Under the pieces are notes generated by a model that was given only the letters and a program-made list of their open reading frames with translations, was not told where the DNA came from and searched no databases. A program made the translations under genes and the position numbers. A stretch of 55,316 nucleotides of DNA from a virus (lineage: Duplodnaviria; Caudoviricetes): positions 1 through 55,316 of the IMG/VR virus record IMGVR_UViG_3300025151_000045. The stretch is one strand, 5' to 3'. Of this stretch, positions 1,807 through 43,829 are shown piece after piece; the stretch's first letter is position 1, and each line of letters opens with the position of its first letter.

Positions 1807-2257
1807 GGCTAGACTTAAGATCGCACAACTAAAAGAAGACAGCTTTAGAAAACTTTTTAAAAACACACAACTTCCTACTAAGAAGCAAGACATGTTTGAA
1901 CATTGGGATGTTCAAGTAAACTTCAAGGTTGATGTAAAGGGTTTGAAGAAAGTTAAAATGAAAGACAAAAAGCCTGATGAAAACATCCACTGGATTGAAA
2001 TAAAAAACGTGTTAGGTAATAAAGGGTGGCTATATGGCGAGGCTGATTTTTTTGCCTTTGAAACTCATAAGTATTGGATAGTAGTCCCTAAGGTCCCTTT
2101 GCAGGATTGGGTCGCTAAGAACGTGTCTAAGGAGTTTTTCAGTCATCCAGAGATGTATAAACTCTACAGCAGAGCTGGGAGACAAGATATAATCACCTTA
2201 GTTTCCAGTCACGACCTATATTTTCTAAGCGAAGTGGTGTTAGAGAAGGAAGGTTAG
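1781..2257 (+). CDS. putative PD-(D/E)xK nuclease
   Basis: DMFEHWD...VDVKG...WIEIKNVLGNKGWLYGEAD pattern. Confidence 0.6.
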   Translation: MRGNNTGAKARLKIAQLKEDSFRKLFKNTQLPTKKQDMFEHWDVQVNFKVDVKGLKKVKMKDKKPDENIHWIEIKNVLGNKGWLYGEADFFAFETHKYWIVVPKVPLQDWVAKNVSKEFFSHPEMYKLYSRAGRQDIITLVSSHDLYFLSEVVLEKEG

Positions 2258-5200
2258 TTATTTTTAAGCATCTCTGTAATTGCTTCGTTAACGTCTTCTT
2301 TCGCTTCGTTTTGTAATTTTTCTATTTCCTGAACTTCTGGAAGGTTTTCATGATATTCTTCTTGAGCTTTCTTTTCCTGATAAGCTTCAAAGTCTATCCA
2401 TCTTAATGGTTTAGCTGGATCTATTTGATCTTTTAGTGCACCTTTAGGGAAGCCTAGAATAGCTGGTATAGTTTCATCTAACTCTACGTCATCTTTAAAA
2501 AGATCAGACATTGCTAACAGTGGATCTATATTAACACTAGATAGATAAAGCATTTTTGTAGCCATTCTTCTATATGCACTCTCCACTTCTTTATCAGTTT
2601 TTGTTTTGTCACTCACGTCTTGGAGTCCAGCGTAAAACTCAAAAAACGTATCTACTATTGGGTTGTACTGCTTTGATGCTCTATTTCTAGCAGAGTATGG
2701 ATCCATATCGTTGAGGTACATTAAATTTACAGCTTCAAAAATGTCACCTAATATTATTAATGAAGATTGAAACATCTTTAACCCTGTAGCATAAGCAGTG
2801 AGATCTCTCACAAACTTCTCTTCATCTTCTTCATCTCCTGTGAGTCTTAAAAAGTTTCCAGCTGTGAAAAATAAAGCGTTAGCTAAGCTTACATTTAAAG
2901 CCATACTCCTTACAGTTCTCTTACTGAAGTCTTTATTGATAACCATGTTATAGCTTTCTTGCATAAACTTATTAAGCTGTAGTATAGATGTAGATGCAAA
3001 AGCTGTAAACAGTCTAAGAAATGGACTTTTCATTAATTGTATTGCACTTAAATCTTGTGCTCTCCTGGTTTGTTGGGTTTCATTATATTTATTAAAAGCT
3101 CTTAACGCTTTGTCCCTAGACATTCCATTTTCTATATTTCTTTTGTAGTTAATAAAATACCCCATTACACCTAACTGATCACCCACCTGTGTGGTCCACC
3201 CTGCAGCTTTTTCAAATTTCCTGGCAAACTTACCTTTATTTAATACACTTCTATTACGTTGTATACCAGTTGCTAATGAATACAAATCTCCATCTTCTAC
3301 TCTATCTCTAAACGTAGCTGAAACTTTTTTAGCTTCTTGAAAATTCTTTCTATAGTTTATAGCCATTCTAGCTGTGTCATAAGCAAAACCTAAAGCATCT
3401 TGAATTTCTTTTGCAATCACTCCCCCTGCACCTTTTGGCTTGAAGTTTGGATTATAATTATAATCTGCATAGGCAGTAATAAAAGATGTAGCCTGCTTTA
3501 ATATCTGAACAGCTTTAAATGCTAAAACACCAACAGTAAACCTAGATAAGTTTTTATCCAGAAGATCATTACTCATCAACTCCATGAGTGCTTCAGGGTT
3601 TATAGTTTGTGTCAATTGTTTTAAGATTCTGCTGTTTGAACCAGTAACAAGCATAGCCTTGCTAATACCATCAGATTTAAACACTGCACTTACATCTTTT
3701 AACCCTTCAGCATAGGCTTTAAATTTTTCCATTTCTGAAAAATGGTTGTCTAAGACGCTAAAAAAGTCTCTGCCTCTTGTTTGCACTTGACCTAAGTTAG
3801 CTGATCTATTTTTTAAAGCTGATGCGTATTGAGCATTAAAAGCTTTATGAAAATCTCCATCTTTAACAGCATCTACTAACTGTTGTTGTGTTTTTTGATC
3901 TGTTTTAACTTGTCTAGGAAAATAGTTTTTAGTCTTAGGAAGAGACACATAGTTAGTAGCTTCATAAACTTCATTAACTCCTTCGTAGTACTGATCACTT
4001 AAATACTCTACAGTCCTGTCTACAAACTCTTTTGTTTTTGAATCAAGTATCTCATCAAGCTGTTGTTGTAGATCGCTTCTAAATTTAAAAGATCCCCTGC
4101 CTCCCTCTAAAATCATTAAAGCTGTCTCTTCGTTTTTCATTAAAGCGTATAGGTTCATTAACTCTCCAATGTTAAAGTTTTTAACACCCTTCTCCATTTT
4201 TAAGTCTACATTCTTAGAAGCATTATCCATCACCCCCTGAATGCCTTTGTCAAAACCAAAGATACTATTAGCCAGAGCATCCATATAATCTTTCTGATTA
4301 AACTTTCCTCTTATATAGTCCTCACTCATGTCAGCTAACTTATCAATAACATTTTCGCTTAAAAATTTATTGTTTTTCGTTTCCATTAACCTAAGCAGAG
4401 TATTGGTGCTTGATGCAGGGTTTTTAGCTAGCTGATTAAAAAACTTTATATAAAACCTTTTATCTTTTATTTTTTTGAAAGACTTAAGCATTTCATTTAC
4501 AATTTTTCCTGCTGCCTTATCTTTACCTTTAGCACTTAAAATTCTTTCTCTTAAGGAAGCCCAGTTGTCTTTAATTTCATCTTCAGTTAAAAACTCTTTC
4601 TCCTGTATTTGAATAACATTTTTAGTAGATATCTTTTTAGTTTTTTCACTTACAGTTTCTTCGATAACAACTCTAAATGTCTTGCCATCAACCTCTACTG
4701 TGCTTTCAGAGTTACCATCCCACTTATCTAATACCTTAGTACCAAATGTTGTTTTTTCCTCATTACTAACAGGTCTAAAGGTAGTACGATCACTAGTGAT
4801 TATGTCATTGAAAGACTCAGACATTAAATTGTCAGTACCCTCTTTTATCTCTCTATTTCTTCTGGCTCTTTGATAGATCTGATTACCTAGTTGTTGTCTA
4901 GATGCATCCTCTACATTCTTAAAGTTTTGTAAAATACTTTTAATATCTTCTAATGACTTAGAGTTAATTTGAGAAAGTAAACTATAAATTCCTAATTTAT
5001 TCACTAAAGCCATTTCTTCTCTAGTTGCTTTGGAATCTTTAGTCTCGCTTTCCATCTTATCTACAGCTGCTTGCACCTCAGCTTTAACACCTGTCACTAA
5101 TCCATCAACAACATCAAACAATTCTGCTTGCAACCTGTTAATTGTCTTCTCATCATTCTTAGCAAAAGCTTTCAACTGTTTAGCAGCCTCTGCAAAAAAC

Positions 5201-8200
5201 CTAATTCCACTAGCATCTATTCTGCCTTTAGAAACTGTTCTCCCAGATTTACTTCTACCAACCTTAGCTAGATTGGTAAAGTTTTTAATAGTCTCAGCTA
5301 TCAACGCTTTCTTTTGCCTTACCTCAATGTCTTCTGCTAACTTTTCAATCTTAAGCATGCTGGCATCGAAGTTATCTAACTTAGCATCTCTGAGTATCCT
5401 TAAGGCTTTGTTGTATTCACTCTTAGTAACCTCTTTGATAGCTACCTGTTGACGAAGTAAGCTGGTAATTCTTTTCTTCATGGATTGAAGGTTGCTTTCA
5501 TTTACCTTCATGCTTCTTATTTGAGTCTTAAGAAGATCCATTCTTTCGCTTAGATTCTTACCCTCATCAATATCCATTAACTTATCTAGATCCACCTCTA
5601 GCTGTTTCTGAAGTTGTTTGTTTCCAGTCAACAGCTTATATACCTCATGATTCCTTAACAGCTTTCCAGCCATCTCTCTCATCTGGATCCTGGTAAGTGG
5701 CTTACCTTCTTTGTCTCTTTTCTTTTTAGTTTTTTTAAGGGTGTTTCTTATGTCACTAAGCATGGCTATTCCTTCACGCATACCTCCAATTACATTACCA
5801 AAAGATGCAGGGACATTGTAGTCCTGGAATAAACCAATCTGCCCACCTTCAAAATCTATTGTAGATTTTATTTCTTCTATAGTAAGCTTTGGATACATAG
5901 ATTTTACAACCTCTATTATTGAAGCGTCTGTAAAACCTTGCTTTCTACCTTCTCTTATTATCTCTATGGCTGATAAGCCACCCATTACTTCAAACCTAGC
6001 CCTGGAAGTTTTGCCAGCCTCAAATGCTGGATCAAAGGCAGCTGCTTCTTTTTCCATAGCAGTCTTGCCAGAAAACAAATCAGCAAGTGCAATGTTTTGA
6101 AAGTCATCAATACTTAAGTTGGCAATGTCCTCCATCTTAGTTTCTTTACTGGTAGTAAATTTTTCTTGTATGTATTTGTACATACCATTTAACCAAGATA
6201 AAAAATTAGATCTCACACTAGCTTTCGCAATGTTCTCTCCTTTGGTAGCTATACCTTCTACTAATGCTTCTTCTAAAACTAAATCTTCATTAGTTAAATT
6301 ACCATCAGCATCAAACTCACCATACTTTTTCTTTGCTTTCTCATAATAAGAGGTGTCTTTAATTAGTTCCAACCCTTTATTTAAAAGTGCTGTTCCTTTT
6401 TTCCCACTTGCCTTTGATCTTAAAAAGTCAATCCATATGTGACCAAACTCGTGTATAGGTGTTGCTAGGGTTGCTTTATCTGGATTAAGATATATCTGTC
6501 CATCTTTAGTAAGACCCAAAATGACTTTTCCTTTAACCTTACTCGTCAGCACTCCAGGCTCATTAATTTTTTTATTAAACTCTTGTTGACTATTAATAAC
6601 ATTTACTTGAGGAAAAGCATATCTCAATTTTGCTGTTATAATTTCAATTGGCGACATTTTACTGGCTTTAATTCTTGCACCAACAAATGCGTTGTCAATA
6701 AAAAACGAACCACCAACTTGATCCCTAACTTTTTCTTTACTTGGTAAAGATTTAGGTTTACCAGTGGCTTTTTCTATTTCAGGTTTAAATACTCTAGATG
6801 CTTTTGCAAAAAACTCTGGAAACACATTGATGCCATTAGTAGGGGTTTCAAGTACTCCCAAGAATTTACCCTTTGGTCCCCATCCATAATTTTGATGATC
6901 AGCTCTAACTACTTTAGGATTAATTACATCAATACCCATAAACCCCATGACGTCACCTTTTCTAGCTTGCATCATTGCAGGCTCTCCAATATCATCAAGT
7001 AATAATTTTTCACTAAACATACTTTTTTGATCAGGCTGGGAATCAATATCGTTTAACGTTTTTGCAATAAGTCTACCACCAACCTTCTGAGTTTTAGCTG
7101 GACTAAAAATCTTATGAAATAAATATTTTTTAGAATCTAAAGGTAAGTGACCAGCTTCAGCTGTAGCATCTTCTTTAGTTTTTTTCTTAGCTCGTTCTTG
7201 ACTGTCTTTAACAACTGCATCTAATAATTGATCTATGGTTTTAATTTCTGGGTTATTTTCTAAAAACTTTTTAAAGTCAGCTTTAGCTTTTTTTAAATCT
7301 TTCCCTGTTATTGGCTTGTCTAAATCTTTTACAAAAGTTTTAAATGCTTCAGTCCTAGCTTCTAAAGAATATTTTTTTATTGTTGGGTTAATCCATCTAA
7401 ATGTAGCTTCATTAGAATATATGGCACTATCTGCCATTCTCATTACAGTTAAAGGAACCATTCCTTTGTATTTAGGATTATCTGCCCACCAGTTATTAAA
7501 ATACTCTTTATTGTTTTGGTACACTTTTACAGCGTTATCAACCATTTTTTGAGCACCTTCAAAATCTACTCCTGCCCATGCTAGATTTTTATTAGGACCT
7601 AAAAGATTATACATTAGTCCACCTCGAACATCTATAGGATTACCTTGTGAATCTTTGAGAGACTTACCTGTAGCCAACACATCAGACATCGCCATAAGCG
7701 TTGGAGTATTGTCAAATTCTTCTAAAGTAACTATTACTTCATCTTCATTTAATCCCAGTTTTTTTAATGCCTTAGCTATTTCTTTTTTATTTACTTTAGA
7801 TACTTTAACAGCATTCACCTTAGTATCTGGCTGGCTCGTAGGCTCTGTGAATTGTATCTGAGCATCCAGCATTTTGTTCATTGCATCCTCAATCTTTTTA
7901 ATAGACACCTCGTCTTCTAACTCAACCTCTTCTGCAATTTCAAATCTAGCATCTCCTTTCTTAGAGGAGATGTTAAGACCTAGTGCTTGAGCCAATACTT
8001 CAGCCTCATCCTTCACTACTTTTTCAACCTCTTGATCTACTTTGGTTTCTTCTACAACTTCACTAACCTCAGTAGTGGGGGTTTCTGTTTTAGGTGACAT
8101 TAAGAATCTACTAGGACCAATCTTTTCTATTACTTCAAAACCTTTAGATTTAAGCATTTTTTCCATTACAGGGCTAACAACATCTACTTCTACTGTAGCT

Positions 8201-11200
8201 TCAGGATTCATATCTTGTATTTCAAAGGGTAAATCTTTTACTTGGTCTAACAACTTAGAACCAACTCCCTTGCCCTCTACAGACTTATCTACCACAACAT
8301 CAAAAGTATATTTACCTGTTGAATTATCATAAGAAGTGTATGCACCTCCTACAATTTTACCATCTTTATCTCTTGCTATAAATGCTATTTCTCTATCTGA
8401 AGTAATTCCTAAATCTCTTTCTTTAGCAATATTTCTAACTTTGTCTTCTGCTTCGTAATCTATCTCCCCATCTTCTGTTACAGCAGGTTCTAATGTAACC
8501 TCTTGATCTACTTCTTTTTTCGCTTGGTCAACTTGGACTTCTTCTTGATTTAATAAATTATAATATTCGTCTTTACTTAAATTCTTTATACTAATTCCCC
8601 CTCTATCAATTTCAGATACTTGATATCTAGCTGTACCATCATCATATAATTGAACAGTAAATTTATATTTTTTACCTCCTATTTCTATAATTTGCACTCT
8701 TTCTCTAACAGCTACTAAATCTGTTCCTCTCTGTCCTTTTTTTCCTTCAGCTTTTGCTTTTTCTACCGCTTCTTTTCCTATAATTTTTTCTATAACTTTA
8801 TCTGTTCCTTCTTCATATATTGTTAAAGTTGGTATATTATCTTTTGCTTCTTTAAATTCAGGAGTAATTCCATCTATTTCTAATTGTTTTTCTATTTTTA
8901 CTTGCGTCTGGTCAACTTGGATTTTTTCTTGACTCTCTTGGGTAGGCGTTTCTTGGGTGTCTCTTGTTCCCAACGTTTCGCCATCTGTGGATTGTTGCTG
9001 TACATCCACTTTCTCTGTGCTTGGCTTTTGAATGGCATCTATCTCTTGGTTTTTAGTTTTTAAAATGTCTTGAACCTCTTGGTTAGGGTTTCTTATAATA
9101 ATGTTGCTATTAATAAGATCCTTAGAACTCATCTTATTTAAGATCTTAACAAACTGTTTAGCGTTGTATTTTCTACCATTAACAGTATAGCTTTGTCCTA
9201 GCTGTGGAAGCTTAACCTGATTCTCTTTACTTCTTACTTTTCCTGAAGTTATAATCTCATTTATCTCTTTGTTGATTTCAGAGATCTGAGGTCCATAAAT
9301 TTCTTTGCTTTGCTGGTAAAAGTTTCTAGACTTTATCAATTCAGCTACCCTGCTTTTTAATTTTGCCTTTCTCCCTCTACCTCTTACTTTCTGAATTACT
9401 GATTCTACAGTAGTTTTTTGAGATACTGTTTCTTGATCTGTTGGAGCCACATCTTCTGTTACAGCCTCAGTAGTAGTTTCAGTAGTGCTTTCTAATACAG
9501 GTAGTTTTATTTTTATTTTAACTTTACCTGGACCTCCTTTAATGGTAGATGTTTCAATTCCTGGGTATATCTCTTGAAGTTCATTAACAATATTATCAGC
9601 CTCAGCTTTACTAACTACAACATCTTTGTAGTCTGTAGACTTTCCAGTTATACCTTCTTTTGTGGCTTGATTTAATGTTACCTCTTTAGTAATTACATTT
9701 CCATTTTCATCAACACTTTCTTTATACCCTTTCTCTTTAGATTTATTCCAAACCCTTAATCCATCTTTAGAAACACTTTTAGTCTCCATCCATTGATGAC
9801 CTTCAGGTAATTGAGTTTGAGCATTGGCTATCATTTTTCCAAACCCTTTGCCATCTACTACCTGCATTTTAGATGTAAACTTATTAGTTGGCTTACCATT
9901 TTCATAAACTCTGTAATAACCTACAAAATTTTGATTAGTGCCTGTGCTACTAATAATTATATCTACTTGACCATTTTCATTTGAATAAACGCCTGTAGAA
10001 ACTTCACCATCAGTAGTCACATCAGAAATCTTAGGAGCACCAGGAATTCCTGGAGCTTCTTGAGTTTCATCAAATAATTTTTTATCTCTATTCTTTACTC
10101 TTTGAGCAGCCTCTTCAGTAGTAGTTTCTTGATCTGCTCTAAGTTTTTTGTTAGTAAACGCCCCCTTAAATCTTGGAGCCACATCTTCTACTGCTTCTTC
10201 AGTAGCAACTTCAGACGCAACCTCTTCTTCTGCTATTGCTAAGTCAGGGTTGCCATTTTTAATATATTCCTGAGCTGTCTTCTTAGCTGCCAGGTTGTCT
10301 GTAATCTGTTGATATGTCACATCATCAATCTGCCCAGTCTCCCTCATGTTGTTGGTCCAAGCTAAAATTTTCTTAGGGCTTGCAGTTTCTTTCATGATGT
10401 TTTTTACATCTGTCAGCGACTCAGCAAATTGAATTTTTTGAGCACGACTATTAACGTCATACATGTTTTTAGCTATATTGGCATACTGAACAGGAGCACC
10501 TAATGATCCTAACATCTCATCTCCTACTTCATTCCAAGCAAACTTATCCTGATCTCCAATAAAAGCCATTCTTGATGCCTGAGCAGCTACCTCTCCTAAT
10601 CCTTCACCTAAAGTTACTGTTGAAAACTCAGCACCTACCATCGCACTTTTTGCTACAGCAGATTGAGTAAACGCCCTTCTCCCAGCACCAAAGATTTTAC
10701 CACCCATTTTTACAGTCAACATGTTAACCAAAGCAATAGGCACACCTCTAGCTAACCCTCTGTTTCTAGCGTCTTTCCAAACCTCATCATCTTCCATTGC
10801 AGTCTTCCAGTCTTGTGGTAATGTAGGGTTGTAACCCTTCTCAGCAGCCACATCTAATATAGCATTGGTGTATTCTACTAGTCCACTAGCTATAGCAAAA
10901 GTTTCACCTGCACCTTCAATAGCACCTAGTCCTGCACCAATAGCAAGCCCTGGAATACCACCTTCACCACCAACAGCAGCAGTGGCAGCAGCCCCACCAA
11001 TAGCACCCTGCCTACCTCTTTGAACTATTCTAGCACCCATTATAGGGACAGCTATTTTTAATCCATAAGGTAGCATTTGGCTCATAGAGTTAGCAAATAA
11101 TGCACCTGCTACCTCAAAAGGATCTCTAAAAACAGTTGCCCAATACTCACTTCCAGAATCAAAAAAACCTTTTCTAGTGTATCTATTGTGACGTTTTAAA

Positions 11201-13314
11201 GCTAAACTTTCTGTGCTGTTGTTTGCTGATTGCAAGTAAGCTGCAACCTCTTTAGACATCTCTTCTCTAGTTTGTGAGTCATGACCTGTAAGACCCATGC
11301 CATACCATAACAAGACATCTCCTGCGCTACCCCTTTTATAACCTTTGTTAAACTCACCTTTAAACCCCTCATAATTTCTTTTTGTATTCTCAGTTATGCT
11401 TTTGTCAAACTTCATGTCAAAAAAGGTCCTAGCATTTAAGTATGAATTAGCTGCTTCTTTTTGAGATATGTTTATGCTGTTTATATTATTGCTTAGTTGT
11501 CGATATTGTTCATAATCGTTTAGCGTTTTAAGATCCCCTTGACCTAAAATAATCTCACCTTTCTCATTCACCACCACTTCAATATCTTGAAACTGTTTGC
11601 CAAATATTCTTTCTGACTCTGCCTGTGAAACGTCATATGCTTTTTTTGAAGCTTTATCTACTTCTGCTGCTAAAGCCATACTGTTCTGTCTTTCTTTTTC
11701 AGCAAAGAAATCAAACTCATCCATTGTGTCACTAATGTAGGTATCAAACACTGACCCTGCACCATAAACCTCAGCTAGCTTCTCATATTGTTGTTCCCCA
11801 TCTTCAACAATCTTAGCCAGCGTAGCTGGGGTTTTAGGCACTACTATTCCATTTTTTAAAGTCATAAAAAGATCTGGAAATCTTCTAGTGTCTTCTTCGC
11901 TATACTTCTGATATTGAGAATTAGGGTCTTCCAATAAAGCATCAGCTAAAGTTAATTTGTCTTGTAGGTGTTTATAGTTTCTACCCCCTGCAGATACTGC
12001 ATAATAATTTAATCCTTTATCTTCAAAAAACTTAACAGCTTTTTTATTTGCCACATCCATTAAGTCATCTTTGGGTGAGATGTTAAGGTCAGCATTGTTC
12101 TTTAAGAATTCTGTCAATAAGTCAAAATCTTCTATCTGATCTAAGTCAACGTCAATGACATTTCCATTTATGTCAACAACACCAAAACCATTACCTATTG
12201 CATTAGATATAGTAGGCATAGCACTAAAGCCATATCTACCAAACTGTTTATTAAAAGCCTTTATTCTATCTTCTGCAGAGATATTGTCTTTTGCTATTTT
12301 ACTCAACGAGTCATTAGTCAGCAGCTCTGCAAACTCTTGATCATTAGCAATCTGTTCATTTCGTTGATTAGATAATCTTTCTTTTTCTAACCATTCCTTT
12401 TTTTGATTCTCTATCTCTACTGCTTTTCTCTCAGTATATTTTTTTAGTTCCTGAATCTTATCATCACCAGGAGCAAACTGTCTGCCTGTCTCATCAAAAA
12501 TAGTTTTGTAGGTAGACTTACTTTCATCAACCTCTTTATTGTGCTCAGTTAATGCTGCTTCTTTTTTCTTGTCAACAGCCTCTATATCTTTCTGATCAAT
12601 AACACCATCATTGTTTACGTCATACTGCTTATTGTTTTGGTAAGCTTTAGACATCATGCTAACACTGCCATCTGTTGTACTTTCGTTAGCTATAAAGTTT
12701 TGTATGTTTTGCTTTTCATCTGGAGCTTCAGGTTGACTTGTTAATCCTTTTCCACGTTCTCGTGCAGCTGAAAGCTTTTCAATTCTTGATTTATATTCTT
12801 GATATTGTGGAGAGGCATCTATATAAGCCTGGCTAAATTTAACAGCTTCTGGAGTGTCGTTTAAAGGATTACCTGCGTAAATGTCAAGCTTACGCCCACG
12901 TTCATCTCTAATCTCTCTATACCCTTCTTTCTGTTGGTTTAAGAAACTAAAATCTTGTTTAGCTTCTCCAGATTCCAAAGAGCCATCTGTGCTTTCTTCC
13001 TTGGTAGTAGATTCCATACCTTCCTCTTGAGAAGAAAATTCTGGTTCGTCTTTTTTTTTTAATGTACCATCTTGTACCAAAGAATCAAATTCGTCTCCAT
13101 AATAAGATTTTAGTTCAGACTCTCCAACCTCCATACCATTTGGAGTAGTATAAAGTATTTCACCATTAGATGGCTGAATATTTTCAGTAGAAGACACCTC
13201 AGCTTTTAATGTGCCATCCTCAACTAAAGAATCAAATTCATCTCCATAATAAGATTTTAATTCTGATTCTCCAACCTGCTGTCCATTAGGGGTAGTGTAA
13301 ACTGTTTCTTCCAT
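2254..13314 (-). CDS. giant polyvalent virion/ejection protein (3686 aa) with GNAT-like domains and a zincin metallopeptidase
   Basis: Last gene of the structural block; HEFGH at ~aa 2288 (nt 6439-6453) with downstream EEALVE; GNAT motif A VVVDKSVEGKGVGSKLL; Gly/Ala hydrophobic segment ~aa 750-950; EF-hand-like DVNNDGVIDQKD. Confidence 0.8.
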   Translation of the reverse strand: MEETVYTTPNGQQVGESELKSYYGDEFDSLVEDGTLKAEVSSTENIQPSNGEILYTTPNGMEVGESELKSYYGDEFDSLVQDGTLKKKDEPEFSSQEEGMESTTKEESTDGSLESGEAKQDFSFLNQQKEGYREIRDERGRKLDIYAGNPLNDTPEAVKFSQAYIDASPQYQEYKSRIEKLSAARERGKGLTSQPEAPDEKQNIQNFIANESTTDGSVSMMSKAYQNNKQYDVNNDGVIDQKDIEAVDKKKEAALTEHNKEVDESKSTYKTIFDETGRQFAPGDDKIQELKKYTERKAVEIENQKKEWLEKERLSNQRNEQIANDQEFAELLTNDSLSKIAKDNISAEDRIKAFNKQFGRYGFSAMPTISNAIGNGFGVVDINGNVIDVDLDQIEDFDLLTEFLKNNADLNISPKDDLMDVANKKAVKFFEDKGLNYYAVSAGGRNYKHLQDKLTLADALLEDPNSQYQKYSEEDTRRFPDLFMTLKNGIVVPKTPATLAKIVEDGEQQYEKLAEVYGAGSVFDTYISDTMDEFDFFAEKERQNSMALAAEVDKASKKAYDVSQAESERIFGKQFQDIEVVVNEKGEIILGQGDLKTLNDYEQYRQLSNNINSINISQKEAANSYLNARTFFDMKFDKSITENTKRNYEGFKGEFNKGYKRGSAGDVLLWYGMGLTGHDSQTREEMSKEVAAYLQSANNSTESLALKRHNRYTRKGFFDSGSEYWATVFRDPFEVAGALFANSMSQMLPYGLKIAVPIMGARIVQRGRQGAIGGAAATAAVGGEGGIPGLAIGAGLGAIEGAGETFAIASGLVEYTNAILDVAAEKGYNPTLPQDWKTAMEDDEVWKDARNRGLARGVPIALVNMLTVKMGGKIFGAGRRAFTQSAVAKSAMVGAEFSTVTLGEGLGEVAAQASRMAFIGDQDKFAWNEVGDEMLGSLGAPVQYANIAKNMYDVNSRAQKIQFAESLTDVKNIMKETASPKKILAWTNNMRETGQIDDVTYQQITDNLAAKKTAQEYIKNGNPDLAIAEEEVASEVATEEAVEDVAPRFKGAFTNKKLRADQETTTEEAAQRVKNRDKKLFDETQEAPGIPGAPKISDVTTDGEVSTGVYSNENGQVDIIISSTGTNQNFVGYYRVYENGKPTNKFTSKMQVVDGKGFGKMIANAQTQLPEGHQWMETKSVSKDGLRVWNKSKEKGYKESVDENGNVITKEVTLNQATKEGITGKSTDYKDVVVSKAEADNIVNELQEIYPGIETSTIKGGPGKVKIKIKLPVLESTTETTTEAVTEDVAPTDQETVSQKTTVESVIQKVRGRGRKAKLKSRVAELIKSRNFYQQSKEIYGPQISEINKEINEIITSGKVRSKENQVKLPQLGQSYTVNGRKYNAKQFVKILNKMSSKDLINSNIIIRNPNQEVQDILKTKNQEIDAIQKPSTEKVDVQQQSTDGETLGTRDTQETPTQESQEKIQVDQTQVKIEKQLEIDGITPEFKEAKDNIPTLTIYEEGTDKVIEKIIGKEAVEKAKAEGKKGQRGTDLVAVRERVQIIEIGGKKYKFTVQLYDDGTARYQVSEIDRGGISIKNLSKDEYYNLLNQEEVQVDQAKKEVDQEVTLEPAVTEDGEIDYEAEDKVRNIAKERDLGITSDREIAFIARDKDGKIVGGAYTSYDNSTGKYTFDVVVDKSVEGKGVGSKLLDQVKDLPFEIQDMNPEATVEVDVVSPVMEKMLKSKGFEVIEKIGPSRFLMSPKTETPTTEVSEVVEETKVDQEVEKVVKDEAEVLAQALGLNISSKKGDARFEIAEEVELEDEVSIKKIEDAMNKMLDAQIQFTEPTSQPDTKVNAVKVSKVNKKEIAKALKKLGLNEDEVIVTLEEFDNTPTLMAMSDVLATGKSLKDSQGNPIDVRGGLMYNLLGPNKNLAWAGVDFEGAQKMVDNAVKVYQNNKEYFNNWWADNPKYKGMVPLTVMRMADSAIYSNEATFRWINPTIKKYSLEARTEAFKTFVKDLDKPITGKDLKKAKADFKKFLENNPEIKTIDQLLDAVVKDSQERAKKKTKEDATAEAGHLPLDSKKYLFHKIFSPAKTQKVGGRLIAKTLNDIDSQPDQKSMFSEKLLLDDIGEPAMMQARKGDVMGFMGIDVINPKVVRADHQNYGWGPKGKFLGVLETPTNGINVFPEFFAKASRVFKPEIEKATGKPKSLPSKEKVRDQVGGSFFIDNAFVGARIKASKMSPIEIITAKLRYAFPQVNVINSQQEFNKKINEPGVLTSKVKGKVILGLTKDGQIYLNPDKATLATPIHEFGHIWIDFLRSKASGKKGTALLNKGLELIKDTSYYEKAKKKYGEFDADGNLTNEDLVLEEALVEGIATKGENIAKASVRSNFLSWLNGMYKYIQEKFTTSKETKMEDIANLSIDDFQNIALADLFSGKTAMEKEAAAFDPAFEAGKTSRARFEVMGGLSAIEIIREGRKQGFTDASIIEVVKSMYPKLTIEEIKSTIDFEGGQIGLFQDYNVPASFGNVIGGMREGIAMLSDIRNTLKKTKKKRDKEGKPLTRIQMREMAGKLLRNHEVYKLLTGNKQLQKQLEVDLDKLMDIDEGKNLSERMDLLKTQIRSMKVNESNLQSMKKRITSLLRQQVAIKEVTKSEYNKALRILRDAKLDNFDASMLKIEKLAEDIEVRQKKALIAETIKNFTNLAKVGRSKSGRTVSKGRIDASGIRFFAEAAKQLKAFAKNDEKTINRLQAELFDVVDGLVTGVKAEVQAAVDKMESETKDSKATREEMALVNKLGIYSLLSQINSKSLEDIKSILQNFKNVEDASRQQLGNQIYQRARRNREIKEGTDNLMSESFNDIITSDRTTFRPVSNEEKTTFGTKVLDKWDGNSESTVEVDGKTFRVVIEETVSEKTKKISTKNVIQIQEKEFLTEDEIKDNWASLRERILSAKGKDKAAGKIVNEMLKSFKKIKDKRFYIKFFNQLAKNPASSTNTLLRLMETKNNKFLSENVIDKLADMSEDYIRGKFNQKDYMDALANSIFGFDKGIQGVMDNASKNVDLKMEKGVKNFNIGELMNLYALMKNEETALMILEGGRGSFKFRSDLQQQLDEILDSKTKEFVDRTVEYLSDQYYEGVNEVYEATNYVSLPKTKNYFPRQVKTDQKTQQQLVDAVKDGDFHKAFNAQYASALKNRSANLGQVQTRGRDFFSVLDNHFSEMEKFKAYAEGLKDVSAVFKSDGISKAMLVTGSNSRILKQLTQTINPEALMELMSNDLLDKNLSRFTVGVLAFKAVQILKQATSFITAYADYNYNPNFKPKGAGGVIAKEIQDALGFAYDTARMAINYRKNFQEAKKVSATFRDRVEDGDLYSLATGIQRNRSVLNKGKFARKFEKAAGWTTQVGDQLGVMGYFINYKRNIENGMSRDKALRAFNKYNETQQTRRAQDLSAIQLMKSPFLRLFTAFASTSILQLNKFMQESYNMVINKDFSKRTVRSMALNVSLANALFFTAGNFLRLTGDEEDEEKFVRDLTAYATGLKMFQSSLIILGDIFEAVNLMYLNDMDPYSARNRASKQYNPIVDTFFEFYAGLQDVSDKTKTDKEVESAYRRMATKMLYLSSVNIDPLLAMSDLFKDDVELDETIPAILGFPKGALKDQIDPAKPLRWIDFEAYQEKKAQEEYHENLPEVQEIEKLQNEAKEDVNEAITEMLKNN
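8026..8513. repeat. 17-bp direct repeat AACCTCTTGATCTACTT flanking the GNAT module
   Basis: Copies at 8026-8042 and 8497-8513; offset 471 nt (in frame). Confidence 0.85.
8525..8932. repeat. 24-bp direct repeat (22/24 identical) flanking an AT-rich module
   Basis: TGGTCAACTTGGA(C/T)TT(C/T)TTCTTGA at 8525-8548 and 8909-8932; offset 384 nt (in frame). Confidence 0.8.
8898..9038 (-). CDS. nested +1-frame gene: 46-aa basic protein MPFKSQAQRKWMYSNNPQMAKRWEQETPKKRLPKRVKKKSKLTRRK
   Basis: ATG at 9038 with A-rich upstream sequence, TAA at 8900-8898; resembles the small phage protein family I recall as MPFKS.AQR.WM.AN.P.MAKRW. Confidence 0.7.
   Translation of the reverse strand: MPFKSQAQRKWMYSNNPQMAKRWEQETPKKRLPKRVKKKSKLTRRK
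9428..10189. repeat. nested direct repeats flanking a GNAT-like module
   Basis: TTGGAGCCACATCTTCT 9441/10173; GTTTCTTGATCTG 9428/10124; TCAGTAGTAGTTTC 9467/10115; all offsets are multiples of 3. Confidence 0.8.
13057..13299 (-). repeat. N-terminal tandem protein repeat (2 x 32 aa) of the giant protein
   Basis: YTTPNG..VGESELKSYYGDEFDSLV.DGTLK at aa 6-37 and 55-86. Confidence 0.9.
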
Positions 13315-29115: not shown

Positions 29116-31551
29116 TTATCTAGGCTCAAATTCAGCTAAATCAAAGCCATCTAATGAATCTTCATTTGATTCAAATGATGTAGGTGGTAAATTGTTTTTT
29201 CGTTGATTAATAAGTTTTGACTGCTGAGTGTTGGCTTGATCAATTCGTTGAGCTTTAGCATCTTCTCTTTGAGTCTCTCTTTCTTGTAAAGCTTTTTCAG
29301 ATATATCTCTGAGCTGCTGTTGATAACCAAACTCTTCAGCCATTAGTGCTTTTTTAAGTTCTGCTTCTGCTTGAAGTTTTTGTGTTTCAAACTGTATCTC
29401 TGCTTGAATTACAGCAATCTTAGATTTAGTTTCCATTTCAATCTTAGCCATCTCTGTTTGAGATTTCATTTGCTGTGCTTGTAACTGAGTTTGAGACTGC
29501 ATCTGCTGCATCATGAGTTGCTGCTCTTTGTCAGCCTCTTCTTTCTGTGATCTCTTAAGTTTTAATAACTGATTAGCTAGTTTAATATTTCTCACTTCTC
29601 TAATGTCAATGGCATCTTCAAGATTGATGTCATTTTTAGAGAGAGCCATTTGAATGTTTTGCTCTAACTGAGCTTTTTGAACTTCATCAGGTGATACAGT
29701 AATGTGAATACCAAAGTCATAGAGATACAAACTTTTTATATCGTCAAGTATTTTTAAATTATACTTTCCTATTTTATTAGCAAACTCTTCCTTAAAATCT
29801 GTATATTCTAACACATCAGATATTCTATAAGAAAGACCTTGAGATATTTTTCTCAATATATAAAGACCAGCATCCAGTATGTGCCTAGTGGCTGTATTGG
29901 AGTTTAAAGCTGCAAGTTTTTGAACCCCCACTAATGATCTAGAGTCAGGAGTTGAAGCATCTCTAGCTTCATTAAGTCCTGTTACTGCCCTGATCATGTC
30001 TAAGTAATGGTTATAGTTTTGAATCAGCATTTGCATTTTGCCTGTACCATTATTAGAGTTTAATTGCTGGATAGGCATTTTACCTTGGTTGTACTCTCCA
30101 TCCTGAGTGTAACTTCTACCAATTACTGATCCTGTTTGAAAATACAACCTTAATGCGTCTTGAGGATTATACGCAGCACCTGTACCCAGGTCTACTTCAT
30201 TTAATCCATCAGCATCAATATATACCCCATCAGGAACTACTCTAGATACGACTTGTTGTAATTTTAAATGAGTAACTTGTATTAAATCAGCAAATGGAAT
30301 CATTCTAGAAACTAATGACTCTATGTTGCCTTTGTACATTCTAGGGGCAACTGCAACGTACTGAGGTAACGCATACTGAGAAGCTGACTTAGGTCTAACC
30401 ATGTTTTTTGCCATTTCCCATTTCAATATAATGTTGGTTCCCATTACCATTACACCTTCATACCAAACCTCTATAGTTTTTTCTATCTTTTCAAAATTAC
30501 CCTCTTCCATAATTTCTTCTGGAGGATTAAAGGTGTCTTCTTTTTCAATAACCCTTTCTGCACCACTATCCATTTTCTTTTTCTTATGAACAAACTTTTG
30601 AGTTGTTTTATAGTTAAAGTACATAAGAGTGGCAGTGTCTCTAGCGAAGATGCTATTCTGATACCATTGAGCAACATTAAAATAATCATACCATGTTTGA
30701 CTATACTTAGCAATTTCTTTAAGATCATCATTGGTTAATGTTGGATCAATTTTTAATAACTCAGTGGTTGCTACAGTTTTTATCTCACCCCAATAAAAAC
30801 AATCTTTCAAAAAGGGATCTTCAGAATAACTATAAACCATATTGGCAGGATCTACATACTCTACCTTAATTCCAGCTCCTGGTAAAAAATGTTGTTTCGC
30901 AGCTGCAATACCACAAACCATTAGATCGTAATCAAGTCTTTTGCGTAGATCTTGATATTCATTTTCTTCTAATAAGGTGTTTATACCTATTTCTTCTGCA
31001 ATCTCTATAGCTGGTTTGTATTTCATTTGCATGTACAATCCTAACTGCTCATCATCAGCTGGTATGTCATCAGGGTTCATATCAAATGGGTTCATACCAA
31101 ATGTCTCACCCATACTAGATAAGAAATCTTTAGCCACCATCTGGCGTTCTACATTTTGTTGAAATATGTTTTTTCTTTCAGAAGATAAAGCGTCTTGAGC
31201 TTCACATTTTACTTCAAAGACTCTATCAGACATGCCATTAACAACAATGTCTACAAATTTGGGTAGTATAGGAACTGGGGTCCAGTCTAGGTTTAAGTAA
31301 CTTAAGTCTCCATCTATAGACAACTCATTTTTATATTTCTCTATGGATTGCTCTCCTCTAGCGTAAACTCTTCTTCTTGCAAACTCATTCCATTGATTAT
31401 AAAATCTACATTGATTTCCATCTTTCCTAAACCACTCGTACTGAATAGCCTGCCCAATTTGTAATCCATAGGCGTCTGTTTTTTTCTCAGCATCTGAGAC
31501 ATATTGACTAGGGAAACCATTTGGCGTTATTTCTATACTTATATCTTTCAT
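29116..31551 (-). CDS. portal protein
   Basis: 811 aa directly after terminase; PILPKFVDIVVNG; Gln-rich C-terminal barrel. Confidence 0.8.
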   Translation of the reverse strand: MKDISIEITPNGFPSQYVSDAEKKTDAYGLQIGQAIQYEWFRKDGNQCRFYNQWNEFARRRVYARGEQSIEKYKNELSIDGDLSYLNLDWTPVPILPKFVDIVVNGMSDRVFEVKCEAQDALSSERKNIFQQNVERQMVAKDFLSSMGETFGMNPFDMNPDDIPADDEQLGLYMQMKYKPAIEIAEEIGINTLLEENEYQDLRKRLDYDLMVCGIAAAKQHFLPGAGIKVEYVDPANMVYSYSEDPFLKDCFYWGEIKTVATTELLKIDPTLTNDDLKEIAKYSQTWYDYFNVAQWYQNSIFARDTATLMYFNYKTTQKFVHKKKKMDSGAERVIEKEDTFNPPEEIMEEGNFEKIEKTIEVWYEGVMVMGTNIILKWEMAKNMVRPKSASQYALPQYVAVAPRMYKGNIESLVSRMIPFADLIQVTHLKLQQVVSRVVPDGVYIDADGLNEVDLGTGAAYNPQDALRLYFQTGSVIGRSYTQDGEYNQGKMPIQQLNSNNGTGKMQMLIQNYNHYLDMIRAVTGLNEARDASTPDSRSLVGVQKLAALNSNTATRHILDAGLYILRKISQGLSYRISDVLEYTDFKEEFANKIGKYNLKILDDIKSLYLYDFGIHITVSPDEVQKAQLEQNIQMALSKNDINLEDAIDIREVRNIKLANQLLKLKRSQKEEADKEQQLMMQQMQSQTQLQAQQMKSQTEMAKIEMETKSKIAVIQAEIQFETQKLQAEAELKKALMAEEFGYQQQLRDISEKALQERETQREDAKAQRIDQANTQQSKLINQRKNNLPPTSFESNEDSLDGFDLAEFEPR

Positions 31552-33800
31552 TACTTAATTAATTCACTAATATTACCCTTATTACTATACCTTGCAAAGT
31601 TAATTCTAATTTTTGATTGTTTTTTAACCTGTGGTTGATACAAATGTTTCTGGTTAGCCATTATAGCTAATCCTGAACTTATGGTCGCATCATACTTAGT
31701 TCTATTGTTTATATTAAACTTTGCCCAATCTTCTAACGTCCTTGTAAAGTGCATTTCTCCCATTTCTCCCATAGTCCTAAAATGCCCATCCATATCTAAA
31801 CCTATATGCTTCTCAATATAACTCTCAATGGCTGCAGCGTGTGCTTGCTTTATATCCTCTGAAGAGTTGGGTATTCCTCCAAGTTCCTTTTCAGTTACAG
31901 ATAATTTATTCTTATGCTTGTCTGGTCTATTTAAAGAAAAACCTCTATATCCTCTATTTTTAAAATGATACAATAGTCTAGGTTTATTATTTTCTACCAA
32001 AATAGGCATACCATAAAACACACAAGCCATTAATACTTCTTCAAAAAATATCTCTGCTGTTTGAGGTCTAGCAATATACTGAAGAAAAAACTGATTAGTT
32101 GGACCTTCATCCATGTGAAATTTTGTTAATCCATGAAGTGCTCCATTAGAAGCACCTCCACCAACAGTTCCTGAGATGTCATAGCTATCACAACCAAAGG
32201 ATCCCATGTGTTCATTACCAGGATATTTAACTCCATTTTTTTCAAAAAAATTATTTTGCAAATTTTTACCTGGAGTCCAGGTAACTAAAAATCTTCCCTT
32301 TGGATCTGGAGTCCATATAACTTGAGTATCTTTAACGCCATCCTTCCAATAAAACTTACCCCTAGTTAAAAAATGCTCAGATATTAATGAATCATTATAA
32401 TCTACCTGTTGATATATTTTAGTTAGATTAAATAAAGAAGCTTTACTTTCATCTCTAAAAGCGTGAGACTCAGTTCTTGGGAACTGACGATAAAACTCAT
32501 TTAATGCATCTGGATCAGATTTTTTTGACTCTACTTCGTTTTCAAAATACTCAATGGCTCCCTGGTAAATATATTCTCCATCAACACCCATAACTTCTTT
32601 TTCTGGGTTATTAAACACAGGCATTCCATACCTGTCTATAAAACCCTCCATGTTCCATTCCATAGGAATAAACAAAGAATATAATCCTGACTTAGTCTGT
32701 CCATTAGCATTTCTTGTTTCTAAATTAGAATCGTAATACAGTTTTTTGAAGTTATCACCTCCTTTTTCAAGTGCATTACATGTAGATCCCATCATGCATT
32801 TACCAATAATCTTTCTACCTAATCTTAAGCAGGTTTTAGTAACCCTCCAGTTATTTAGTATATTGGTAGGCTTCAACCATTTACCACTTTCGTCATGTGC
32901 TAAAAATAAAAGCTTCTCTCCATCGTAAGAGTTGTCATCTGTGTTTTTCCAATCAATCGTAGTGTCTAACCCATCAAGTTCATTAGACGCTACCTCATAC
33001 ATGTTTTTCTTGGTAATTTTACTAGCTGGAACTCTGTATGCTAATTCAGTTTTAGGACGATCCATACCATCCTGAATAGGCTTAAAAAAGAATGGATAGT
33101 TGTTAGAAATAGGCACAACCTTGTCAGTAAACATTTTTTTTGCATCATCCCCTTTCTTTGATAATATACCTATACGAGCATCTTTTGATATAGTGCCTAT
33201 ATTTGCACATTCTTCTGAAGCCATAAATGAAAAACCAGAACGTCTAATTTTTAAATAACACATGCCAAAGGATCTAGAGTCAGCCTTACACGCTTCCCAG
33301 TATAAGTAAAATATTCTATTAGCTTCTCTGAAATCTGGTAACCCTACATCTATTTTTGTCCATTGTAAATACATGTAATGGGATCCTGTAAGATACGTTG
33401 GCTCACCATTATTCATAAACCAAAAACCTTGTTCTCTTCTATTAAATTCGTTTTCAATATAGTCTACCCAGTTACTTTTAAAAGCAGCTGGCATTTCATT
33501 CCATTGAAAAATACTTTTTATTTTAGAAAGATCAGTGGGGTATTCAAAAGGTTTCCAATATTGATCTGCTTTTTTTGACGATCTTTTAAAAACACTTTTA
33601 GGACATTTGGGAAGACCTATTCTCAATCCATTGATAACATAAATATCTCCTAACGTACCATCTTTAGAAATAACAACCAAGTCATACTTTGAATCATAAC
33701 CATACTTCCAAGATTTGTTTTTGTTTTTTAAAGAAACAACAGATCCAGGAATGGTTGACTTAGCAACCCTGTATAAACTATTTTGAGTTTCTTTCTGCAA
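31551..33800 (-). CDS. terL: terminase large subunit
   Basis: KIRRSGFS (Walker A-like), LAHDESGKW (Walker B), GST coupling motif, nuclease GCDSYD...D.TISSG. Confidence 0.85.
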   Translation of the reverse strand: MQKETQNSLYRVAKSTIPGSVVSLKNKNKSWKYGYDSKYDLVVISKDGTLGDIYVINGLRIGLPKCPKSVFKRSSKKADQYWKPFEYPTDLSKIKSIFQWNEMPAAFKSNWVDYIENEFNRREQGFWFMNNGEPTYLTGSHYMYLQWTKIDVGLPDFREANRIFYLYWEACKADSRSFGMCYLKIRRSGFSFMASEECANIGTISKDARIGILSKKGDDAKKMFTDKVVPISNNYPFFFKPIQDGMDRPKTELAYRVPASKITKKNMYEVASNELDGLDTTIDWKNTDDNSYDGEKLLFLAHDESGKWLKPTNILNNWRVTKTCLRLGRKIIGKCMMGSTCNALEKGGDNFKKLYYDSNLETRNANGQTKSGLYSLFIPMEWNMEGFIDRYGMPVFNNPEKEVMGVDGEYIYQGAIEYFENEVESKKSDPDALNEFYRQFPRTESHAFRDESKASLFNLTKIYQQVDYNDSLISEHFLTRGKFYWKDGVKDTQVIWTPDPKGRFLVTWTPGKNLQNNFFEKNGVKYPGNEHMGSFGCDSYDISGTVGGGASNGALHGLTKFHMDEGPTNQFFLQYIARPQTAEIFFEEVLMACVFYGMPILVENNKPRLLYHFKNRGYRGFSLNRPDKHKNKLSVTEKELGGIPNSSEDIKQAHAAAIESYIEKHIGLDMDGHFRTMGEMGEMHFTRTLEDWAKFNINNRTKYDATISSGLAIMANQKHLYQPQVKKQSKIRINFARYSNKGNISELIK

Positions 33801-42374: not shown

Positions 42375-42578
42375 TTATTTTCTAATGTTAGCACTGTTTC
42401 TTTTTTTAACACCTTCATATTTCATTCCATGATCGCCACCATAAGCGTGACCATAAATCTTTTTAGACATTGCTTTACTTTCATCTCTACGATCTTTTAA
42501 AGATTGCTTATGCTTCCCTTTATGTTTGTTTCCTAAAGACTCGTCTAATCTTGCGTTGTAACCTTGTTTCTTTGCCAT
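42375..42578 (-). CDS. small basic protein
   Basis: QGYNARLDESLG...QSLKDRRDESK motif. Confidence 0.7.
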   Translation of the reverse strand: MAKKQGYNARLDESLGNKHKGKHKQSLKDRRDESKAMSKKIYGHAYGGDHGMKYEGVKKRNSANIRK

Positions 42579-42593
42579 TTTTTTTAATTTTTG

Positions 42594-42770
42594 TTATTTT
42601 TTTGCTTTCCCTTTTACTTTTTTAAGATTAGGGTTTTTCTTTTTAGCTTTACCAGAAGACTTTCTAGAAGCACTAGCTAATATTGCACTAGCAGCTTTTT
42701 TTGAATAACCTCCCTTTTTTGCAATACTTGCTGCAACTTTTTTAAAGCCCTTTGGTTTTTTCTTTGCCAT
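42594..42770 (-). CDS. very basic Lys/Ala-rich protein
   Basis: MAKKKPKGFKKVAASIAKK...; TATATTTG 3 nt upstream. Confidence 0.7.
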   Translation of the reverse strand: MAKKKPKGFKKVAASIAKKGGYSKKAASAILASASRKSSGKAKKKNPNLKKVKGKAKK

Positions 42771-42773
42771 ATG

Positions 42774-42781
42774 CAAATATA
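42774..42781 (-). promoter_or_regulatory. -7 element TATATTTG, leaderless arrangement
   Basis: TATATTTG-CAT-ATG. Confidence 0.55.
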
Positions 42782-43078
42782 CTAATATTTTCCTTGCCTA
42801 TTTTTTGGAGAACTTTTTGTAGATCCCCCTTTGCCAGCCCAAAGGTTCTTGCATGCCCAATATCTAGCTGTCAACTTAGACTTGGCAGAAGAACACTTGT
42901 GGCGAGCTTTAAAACTTTTTCTAGCTGCAGATGAGTAGTTATGACCATAACCTTTAGCACCAAAGTGAATTACCTTCTCTTTGCCACCCTCACATCCCTT
43001 AACCATCTTTTTCTTTCCTGGTCTTGTGGATGATCTCACTTTATTGCAAGCCATCTTTGATTTATCTACTCTAGCCAT
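42782..43078 (-). CDS. small basic protein
   Basis: HFGAKG...ARKSFKARHKC...ARYWAC..LW conserved viral motif. Confidence 0.75.
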   Translation of the reverse strand: MARVDKSKMACNKVRSSTRPGKKKMVKGCEGGKEKVIHFGAKGYGHNYSSAARKSFKARHKCSSAKSKLTARYWACKNLWAGKGGSTKSSPKNRQGKY

Positions 43079-43188
43079 TAGTATCCCTTTTTTTTCGATA
43101 CTTTCATACCTTTTTTCTTAGCATACTTCTTTGCTGCTGCTTTTCCTTTTGCAGTGTATGCAAACTTTTTCTTTCCTACTTTTGGCAT
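43078..43188 (-). CDS. 36-aa basic peptide (not in ORF track)
   Basis: MPKVGKKKFAYTAKGKAAAKKYAKKKGMKVSKKKGY; TAATG-coupled to the next gene. Confidence 0.75.
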   Translation of the reverse strand: MPKVGKKKFAYTAKGKAAAKKYAKKKGMKVSKKKGY

Positions 43189-43190
43189 AA

Positions 43191-43547
43191 CTATTTTCTT
43201 TTTACTGGTTTAACTTTTTTACCTCCTGCTCCTTGCATCCCAACTCTTCTTTTTTCTGCTTTTTTTCTAGCAAGTTCAGACTTACTCATCTCCCCTTTTG
43301 TTTTAGGAGTTTTACTAGAAACCCTTTTACTAGGTCTACAATATTCATTCTTACCTCCAGATCCACAAGGTTTTCCTGTTCTGGTGTCCACCCATTTCTC
43401 TGCACCCCACCTTTTTAGATTAGATCCAGCTTTAGTTTTTCTAACTTTACCTTTTCCCTTTCGGCACTTAGCTGTGGCTTGAGCTGCTCTTGCAGACCAC
43501 TTACCATAGCTTTTCATTATCTTTTTATAACAGGCGTCTTTTGGCAT
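43191..43547 (-). CDS. small basic protein
   Basis: WSARAAQ...LKRW..EKW...YCRPSKRVSSKTPKT conserved viral motif. Confidence 0.75.
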   Translation of the reverse strand: MPKDACYKKIMKSYGKWSARAAQATAKCRKGKGKVRKTKAGSNLKRWGAEKWVDTRTGKPCGSGGKNEYCRPSKRVSSKTPKTKGEMSKSELARKKAEKRRVGMQGAGGKKVKPVKRK

Positions 43548-43556
43548 AACTATTTT

Positions 43557-43829
43557 TTATCCCCTAGATCTTTTATCTCCAGGCATATCATCTTTATCTC
43601 CTCTGTTCTTACTCTTCTTACAAAAAGCAATTCTTACTTTGCCTTTGTATTTTTTTTCGCAGGCATCAAGATCATCTCCATTACCATACGTTCCTTTCCT
43701 TCTATTAAACTTATTTAGCTTCGTTCTTTTTTTTGTAGCCTTAGTGGTTTTATTATACTTCTTATCATACGCTTTTTTCTTAGCGTAAGAATCTGGGTTT
43801 GATTTATAATGTTTAGCTGTAGCTTTCAT
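43557..43829 (-). CDS. small basic protein, degenerate HNH-like
   Basis: GNGDDLDA...SKNRG pattern lacking the catalytic His. Confidence 0.6.
   Translation of the reverse strand: MKATAKHYKSNPDSYAKKKAYDKKYNKTTKATKKRTKLNKFNRRKGTYGNGDDLDACEKKYKGKVRIAFCKKSKNRGDKDDMPGDKRSRG

Follow-up and report, generated by a model that had tools for sequence, protein, structure and literature searches.

The DNA analysed here, referred to as the window, is the complete IMG/VR virus record IMGVR_UViG_3300025151_000045 (55,316 bases, estimated to be 91% complete), and the subject of this work is a short open reading frame (ORF) nested in the giant gene of this tailed phage. The giant gene lies on the minus strand (2254..13314), is an ORF of 3686 codons and is the last gene of the virion operon. 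The nested ORF (8898..9038, minus strand) begins with ATG, runs for 46 codons and then ends with TAA, in the +1 frame of the giant gene. Its start is at nucleotide offset 4276 of the 3686-codon ORF 13314..2254, and the overlap takes up host codons 1426-1472. Read from 9038 to 8898, the nested ORF translates to MPFKSQAQRKWMYSNNPQMAKRWEQETPKKRLPKRVKKKSKLTRRK*, and the giant (host) frame over it reads ...DAIQKPSTEKVDVQQQSTDGETLGTRDTQ.... An earlier inspection of the window, made without database searches (the sequence-only reading), had claimed this 46-codon ORF at 8898-9038, and gave its sequence exactly. The peptide product is basic, with two predicted helices followed by a Lys/Arg-rich tail. 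Codons 1-28 (8955..9038, minus strand) make up a conserved core, an island of nucleotide conservation with the variation at small-frame third positions.

By itself, the length of the nested ORF is unremarkable (2 of the 128 out-of-frame ATG ORFs of the giant gene have at least 46 codons), and the case consequently depends on comparison with other sequences. It is homology, not length, that lifts the nested ORF above chance. The other out-of-frame ATG ORF of this size is also in the +1 frame (11372..11202, minus strand, 56 aa), and its translation looks unremarkable.

Nested loci and selection on the two frames

Members of the same small-protein family were confirmed in 536 of 600 pattern matches in IMG/VR viral contigs. 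The viral loci examined were the best 80 of these 536, those most similar to the window peptide, and their proportions are biased by this choice. In 49 of the 80 loci the small ORF lay inside an ORF on the same strand whose visible part spans at least 800 aa, and in five more it lay about 42-59 codons into an ORF of about 400 aa. Six loci held in-frame N-terminal fusions (113 aa to at least 1,152 aa), and 20 held a free-standing small gene in a tightly packed operon. The phase was the same (host +1) in the window and in 54 of the 54 nested viral loci. The giant hosts are mosaic: 35 of the 54 gave any BLASTP match to the giant protein of the window, identity to it outside the overlap was 22-40%, and the order of shared modules around the small ORF varies between phages. 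In prokaryote assemblies (best 80 of 131 loci, all in metagenome-assembled genomes), 64 copies were free-standing, 13 were nested in the +1 phase, two were in another phase and one was a fusion. The two other-phase loci are probably spurious open frames.

A divergent nested variant was detected by tblastn in 68 Flavobacterium phage records and in MW202828.1 (69 GenBank records). MW202828.1, the closest GenBank relative, has a 3859-aa giant gene with the variant at about 9593-9724 (minus strand), in the +1 phase by coordinates. The cultured phage vB_FspP_elemoA_13-1A (MT497065.1) carries it at 53643-53771 (1501-1629 of the extracted locus, L087), also +1 by coordinates, in a giant 'structural protein' gene (49982..61066). 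The variant of the Flavobacterium lineage has two Cys (..KACY..WDCKKW..) that the main family lacks. The annotation of the MW202828.1 giant gene, 'reticulocyte binding/rhoptry protein', looks spurious. In 40 of the 40 matches listed from the 69 records, the giant coding sequence alone was named under the match; the expectation that the nested ORF had been missed by standard annotation thus agrees with the records listed.

Codon positions were compared across 43 unique nested sequences, with the first 28 codons, which align without gaps, as the anchor. Entropy was 0.418, 0.301 and 0.757 at small-frame codon positions 1, 2 and 3 respectively, and 1.3-1.5 in the 60 nt upstream. The most variable site was the small-frame third base, which is the host first base, and the host wobble base was the least variable. 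Moreover, the four-fold sites of Ala7, Pro17, Ala20, Thr27 and Pro28 vary freely, near saturation, with positions 1 and 2 constant. Third-position variation combined with fixed positions 1 and 2 is what selection on a protein, and not on a nucleic acid, leaves behind, and speaks against the idea that the swallowed gene is an untranslated fossil whose island is kept as a recombination site or RNA element. Such an element would suit an island that lies at module boundaries of mosaic giant genes, with a different order of surrounding modules from phage to phage, and that is abutted by a repeat-mediated indel (described below). However, besides the codon pattern, start and stop are retained in 54 of 54 nested loci, and 8 of the 8 whole genomes searched (the window, MT497065.1, MW202828.1 and five IMG/VR records of 78-100% completeness) carry no copy besides the nested one. 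We consider a fossil or nucleic-acid element very improbable.

Pooled Nei-Gojobori ratios of nonsynonymous to synonymous differences (pN/pS) were 0.215 (pS 0.60) for the small frame, against 1.745 (pS 0.13) for the host frame and 1.227 for the third. In codon alignments of 22 loci, host-frame pS fell from 0.6-0.7 in the flanks to 0.11 in the first 25 overlap codons, and in a second giant-gene group (9 loci) it fell from about 0.5-0.6 to 0.07. The host frame shows no purifying selection of its own in the overlap (pN/pS 1.5-1.75), as would be expected if the giant ORF were not read through, with two genes flanking a free-standing small gene and an open host frame that is accidental or an assembly artefact. 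That account is barely credible, as the host frame runs through the small ORF without a stop in 54 of 54 loci and in the 69 GenBank records, cultured isolates included, and long ORFs run on in the same frame on either side. In the five loci with hosts of about 400 aa, the host ORF begins about 42 codons upstream of the small ORF and 15-20 nt past the stop of the preceding gene, and the indel beside the nested ORF, of 384 nt, preserves the frame.

Contigs from four public DNA runs were aligned to 8300-9700 for population-level data, and a look-up of RNA data sets covering 7500-10500 listed none. Contig depth rises only across about 8958-9051 (e.g. 497 vs. about 11) because contigs from other organisms match just 8979/8999-9040, ending at 9038-9042, that is, at the ATG. 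Among close relatives, four of the seven differences listed within the ORF are silent in the small frame and alter the host protein, one (Arg to Lys) is silent in the host frame, and two together convert the TAA stop to Lys, with a new stop two codons later. Because of the codon-position, pN/pS, host-frame pS and population results, the small frame appears to be read as protein. Across the overlap the host-frame string is conserved (D-A-I-Q-E-S-S-T..V-D-V-Q-E), apparently as a by-product of the small gene.

The nested ORF is thus very probably a genuine gene inside a gene, a 46-codon +1 gene within the giant gene, and this stretch would encode two proteins. The true dual coding proposed from the letters of the window receives strong comparative support from the uniform phase, the small-frame codon pattern and the drop in host synonymous differences.

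The small-protein family

Candidate small proteins were sought in a database of 5.8 billion proteins, with a match defined as E<=0.01. The peptide was matched by 22 of the 23 candidates (E 4.1e-13 to 1.2e-8, 64-83% identity, 40-67 aa), and pipelines name the matching small proteins 'hypothetical protein'. With a profile of 39 members, 3,682 cluster representatives passed the E<=1e-3 threshold, and 681 passed E<=1e-10. The exact MPFxS start was present in 122 of the best 150 profile representatives; by size, 77 of these 150 had up to 100 aa and 73 had more than 100 aa. Because the best 150 mostly start with MPFxS and split 77/73 around 100 aa, the family unit occurs either as a small protein in its own right or as the module at the very N-terminus of a longer chain. 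The sequence-only reading had taken the peptide for a widespread stand-alone small phage protein, and this is borne out: besides the 3,682 representatives, free-standing copies account for 20 of the 80 viral loci and 64 of the 80 genome loci.

In the alignments, residues M1, P2, F3, K4, S5, A7, Q8, P17, A20 and T27 are invariant and R9, M12, Y13, W23, E24, L32 and P33 are near-invariant; the window peptide carries every one of these columns. Met-Pro-Phe-Lys-Ser stands at residue 1 in 39 of the 39 aligned members, and in the window peptide as well. Further family features are a Thr-Pro...Leu-Pro motif and a Trp/Tyr/Met core in the predicted hairpin. The Lys+Arg fraction of the tail after residue 28 is 0.48 in nested and 0.46 in free-standing members, and with 46 aa the window peptide is within the family length of about 40-60 aa.

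AlphaFold2, run with the 39-sequence alignment, placed helices at residues 6-15 and 17-26 and an extended, basic tail after them (mean predicted local distance difference test score 82.8). The predicted fold of the peptide is a two-helix hairpin. Foldseek searches with this model returned nothing from the PDB at E<=0.001, and from BFVD the top matches were uncharacterised phage proteins of the family (44-85 aa, 41-71% identity). A sequence profile search of the PDB gave two matches to SH3BGRL (E 0.3-0.4) over a 13-residue stretch, which were treated as chance. The ESM Atlas feature search returned only hypothetical viral clusters; the nearest Pfam-bearing cluster there (0.85) was DUF3008 (PF11450), small basic phage proteins, and serves as a lead only. 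Membership of DUF3008 was rejected, as an HMM match was absent for the peptide and all 39 members at E<=10.

No Pfam family was matched in a scan of all 39 aligned members. The family corresponds in part to phrog_1375 (PHROGs v4, unknown function), whose model is hit at E<=0.01 by 18 of the 39 aligned sequences (best E 5.4e-6), and it includes uncharacterised phage proteins in UniProt such as A0A6J5L1Y8. Entries of this type are free-standing genes, whereas the nested copy is recorded in none of the annotations examined. Among ten longer members scanned, one carried InPase and a glycine zipper, one DUF5661 and one a weak AAA match, and seven gave nothing. Against GenBank phages, tblastn with the peptide gave 12 weak matches (best 6e-3), each aligned from residue 1. 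In phage 023Pt_psg01 the family gene is annotated (39 aa) and lies between the portal and head genes, in Streptomyces phage FlowerPower the family member is gp48 (72 aa), and in phage C75C1 it is an unannotated, free-standing ORF of 34 aa.

Start, stop and the adjacent repeat-flanked module

In the window, a small-frame TAG lies immediately 5' of the nested ATG, and this ATG is kept in 43 of the 43 unique nested sequences. The putative translation initiation region (9039..9058, minus strand) is A-rich and without a Shine-Dalgarno-like motif. Positions -20..-1 were 62% A in the 43 nested relatives vs. 36% at 4029 control ATGs (out-of-frame ATGs in the same giant genes), of which 1.1% reached 62%. 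Upstream regions of the window's own genes are 50% A and 30% T. A Shine-Dalgarno-like motif was present in 2 of the 43 nested ORFs vs. 2 of the 37 gene starts in the window. The mean minimum free energy (MFE) of the 61 nt around the start was -2.83 kcal/mol in nested ORFs vs. -8.71 kcal/mol in 1712 controls, and in the window itself the 61-nt start region has an MFE of 0.0 kcal/mol. Since it is A-rich and weakly folded, like the ordinary gene starts of the phage, the start region would fit independent initiation on the late mRNA. A-rich starts without a Shine-Dalgarno sequence are usual in Bacteroidota. The late virion mRNA of the giant gene would also carry the nested +1 gene, which would be translated from its own ATG at an A-rich, unstructured site that lacks a Shine-Dalgarno sequence.

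The median length was 51 aa in nested vs. 50 aa in free-standing members, and a stop at the length typical of the family speaks for termination that is independent, and against frameshifting as the source of the main product. If the +1 segment were used through programmed frameshifting, two variants can be drawn: ribosomes on the giant ORF would shift in and stop, so that the giant protein is cut short and ends in a basic C-terminus, or ribosomes starting at the nested ATG would shift by -1 back into the giant frame and join the MPFKS domain to the 2,200 residues downstream. In favour of such products, A-runs encode the tail, the domain is the in-frame N-terminus of longer proteins in six of the 80 viral loci (one of at least 1,152 aa), and 73 of the best 150 representatives exceed 100 aa. 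However, the invariant ATG is difficult to reconcile with it, and a small-frame stop lies 0-32 codons upstream (directly before the ATG in the window), which excludes entry from the upstream host frame. In the hosts of about 400 aa, moreover, the part upstream of the small ORF amounts to merely about 42 aa. A frameshift product in place of an independent gene is quite improbable, though a minor -1 product may be made alongside.

The end of the nested ORF (...KKKSKLTRRK*) is held by copy A of a 42-nt direct repeat (8891..8932, minus strand). Copy B (8507..8548, minus strand, 42 nt) is 79% identical to copy A, lies 384 nt from it and in the same +1 phase reads KKKSKLTKRKKK*. The module between the repeats (8542..8925, minus strand) is 384 nt or 128 codons long and is in frame. 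The contig of a close relative, from one public DNA run, joins position 8541 directly to 8926 and lacks exactly the 384-nt module, with 0 differing letters over 8497-8541 and 9 over 8926-9440. The module is an indel polymorphism that keeps both frames. The overlap had been suggested to predate the module, which is consistent with the module-less relative keeping the ORF intact; the event is an indel and may have run in either direction.

Origin, possible role and genome setting

Several points weigh against a genuine gene inside a gene. We infer translation of the nested ORF from selection alone. The pairwise statistics pool related sequences that are not phylogenetically independent, a dependence that is lessened and not removed by taking one sequence per host-gene group (n = 15; pN/pS 0.238 in the small frame vs. 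1.498 in the host frame). The A-richness upstream of the ATG is partly expected from the Lys/Glu/Gln-rich host linker, and the host-frame string over the overlap is itself conserved and may have a role of its own. The nested share of 54 in 80 is not family-wide, with only 13 of 80 nested in the +1 phase in the genome-contig sample. Finally, the window peptide matches no Pfam model (0 families at E<=10) and its match to phrog_1375 is weak (E=0.91).

With a gene inside a gene as the preferred explanation, the small frame is the constrained one and most likely also the older one. The giant gene reads the shared bases as a polar, acidic linker that appears to be dictated by the needs of the small gene. 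A free-standing small gene would have been engulfed as neighbouring modules fused across it in another frame, and this fusion would have left its independent start and stop intact. Because the domain is almost always at the extreme N-terminus, it would probably lose its function if fused in frame somewhere inside a longer protein. This strict N-terminal position suggests that a free N-terminus matters for the domain, and such a need would explain an out-of-frame fusion across the small gene.

In five loci (L012 3105-4307, L037, L081, L054 and L032), mid-size genes of about 800, 400 and 490 aa replace the giant gene, and the gene of about 400 aa contains the small ORF close to its beginning. 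Such a layout may be a stage on the way to the giant gene, or a split version of it. In L008 (6001-9456), and also in L009, a protein of at least 1,152 aa begins in frame with the small domain, and BLASTP found no similarity of this protein to the giant host proteins. More generally, when the fusion proteins and the proteins encoded beside free-standing copies were compared with the giant hosts by BLASTP, they proved unrelated. The exceptions were the hosts of about 400 aa, which match one another, and two short matches for the 1608-aa ORF of L005.

Family genes lie in or beside virion modules, and in L011 the free-standing copy directly follows the portal gene. We suggest, tentatively, that the peptide is virion-associated and nucleic-acid-binding or cargo-associated, made together with structural and ejected proteins. 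Six very basic small proteins are encoded at 42375..43829 on the minus strand (67, 60, 98, 36, 118 and 90 aa, with 15-39 Lys+Arg each); the 118-aa protein is DUF5872 and the 98-aa protein is weakly DUF5754. The nested peptide had been proposed as perhaps one more member of this set at 42-44 kb. That proposal stands in part: no sequence homology was found between the nested peptide and the set, but in 8 of the 20 free-standing loci a homologue of the 98-aa or the 36-aa basic protein of the window lies within about 400 nt.

A fuller account would combine these elements: an ancestral small gene that needs a free MPFKS N-terminus and around which the giant gene grew, with fusion possible only in another frame; a reverse overprint, which keeps a widespread small protein within a young linker of a giant virion or cargo protein; and a peptide that partners the giant protein or the packaged DNA. 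The peptide, made from the same late mRNA, would then be a packaging or ejection adaptor or a DNA-binding internal peptide. As a whole we regard this combination as somewhat unlikely. If true, nesting of this kind would be a repeated trait, missing from annotation, of an entire class of aquatic phages.

Embedded phage genes are known but few, and annotation pipelines discard them. The spanin genes Rz and Rz1 of phage lambda occur in embedded, overlapped and separated architectures, with Rz1 inside Rz in the +1 frame when embedded; Rz1, a lipoprotein that carries a signal sequence and a lipobox Cys, works with Rz in lysis. As with Rz1 in Rz, the small gene studied here lies wholly within a larger same-strand gene, in +1, and is free-standing elsewhere. 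Unlike Rz1, the nested peptide is without Cys and without a hydrophobic signal, and its host is a giant virion or cargo gene. An identity as a spanin Rz1 was rejected, there being no Cys and no hydrophobic stretch in the 46 aa.

Overprinted genes are also known from small viruses (phiX174 B within A and E within D), and in classical overprinting the short embedded ORF is a young de novo gene. The likeness is that of two frames, one strongly constrained and the other relaxed and compositionally biased. Unlike overprinting of the phiX174 type, the short ORF here belongs to a huge family and the linker of the long gene is relaxed, so the polarity appears reversed. Unlike in size-limited small viruses, moreover, the nested gene sits in a 55-kb tailed phage. 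The architecture is thus known from embedded phage genes, but the polarity, with a widespread short frame and a long frame as passenger, appears to differ.

The giant host may be akin to the polyvalent proteins of phages (Iyer et al. 2017, PMC5512222), with its GNAT domain, its HExxH motif and its place at the end of the virion operon. InPase is one of the polyvalent-protein domains (PMC5512222), and the family fusions carry InPase and DUF5661. In the same text, packaging into the virion and injection are considered likely for the InPase domains of these proteins (PMC5512222). The words 'overlapping', 'frameshift' and 'alternative frame' have 0 occurrences in PMC5512222. An occurrence of 'MPFKS' in a phage paper (PMC12919940) was rejected as a chance C-terminal match. 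An earlier description of the nested gene was not found in the literature, in a search that had subscription journals and supplements outside its scope.

The comparative evidence for nesting is unusually clean and spans dozens of highly diverged host genes, in a very large family (3,682 cluster representatives) that is outside every Pfam model. The case illustrates how a mosaic giant gene of a phage can expand by fusion over a gene in between and leave that gene intact, and it cautions that a second, concealed gene may shape the linkers of giant phage proteins. The cultured Flavobacterium phages among the at least 69 GenBank records make this testable at the bench now.

The virion operon runs on the minus strand in the order terminase, portal, virion structural proteins, a 1608-aa protein, a muzzle-domain protein and the giant gene. 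The terminase large subunit (33800..31551, minus strand) comes first and is directly followed by the portal gene (31551..29116, minus strand). The 295-aa protein at 16166-17053 (minus strand) has the C-terminal domain of the crAss-virus muzzle protein (PF25729, E 1.3e-8), and it sits in a 55-kb phage related to Flavobacterium and Cellulophaga podoviruses. In the giant protein, the sole Pfam match is a GNAT domain (aa 1638-1730, E 2.8e-5), and a HEFGH motif is visible in the sequence; a MuF or LPD domain was not found at E<=0.01. A blastn search of window positions 8000-10000 against the phage collection gave no match. The terminase relatives are from phages of Flavobacterium (68 records), Cellulophaga (15), Tenacibaculum (2) and Maribacter (1), and the host is therefore likely a member of the Bacteroidota. 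The closest terminase relative is that of MW202828.1 (75% identity), and syntenic giant genes are present in MW202828.1 and in Flavobacterium phage vB_FspP_elemo.

Elsewhere in the window, a phage GroEL is encoded at 45471-47120 on the minus strand (phrog_5725, E 4.5e-128), next to a GroES-like protein of 85 aa at 45106-45363 on the same strand; GroEL and GroES are both annotated in a related Flavobacterium phage record. On the plus strand, a 335-aa protein at 49845-50852 matches phrog_7245, labelled anti-restriction protein (E 2.1e-64).

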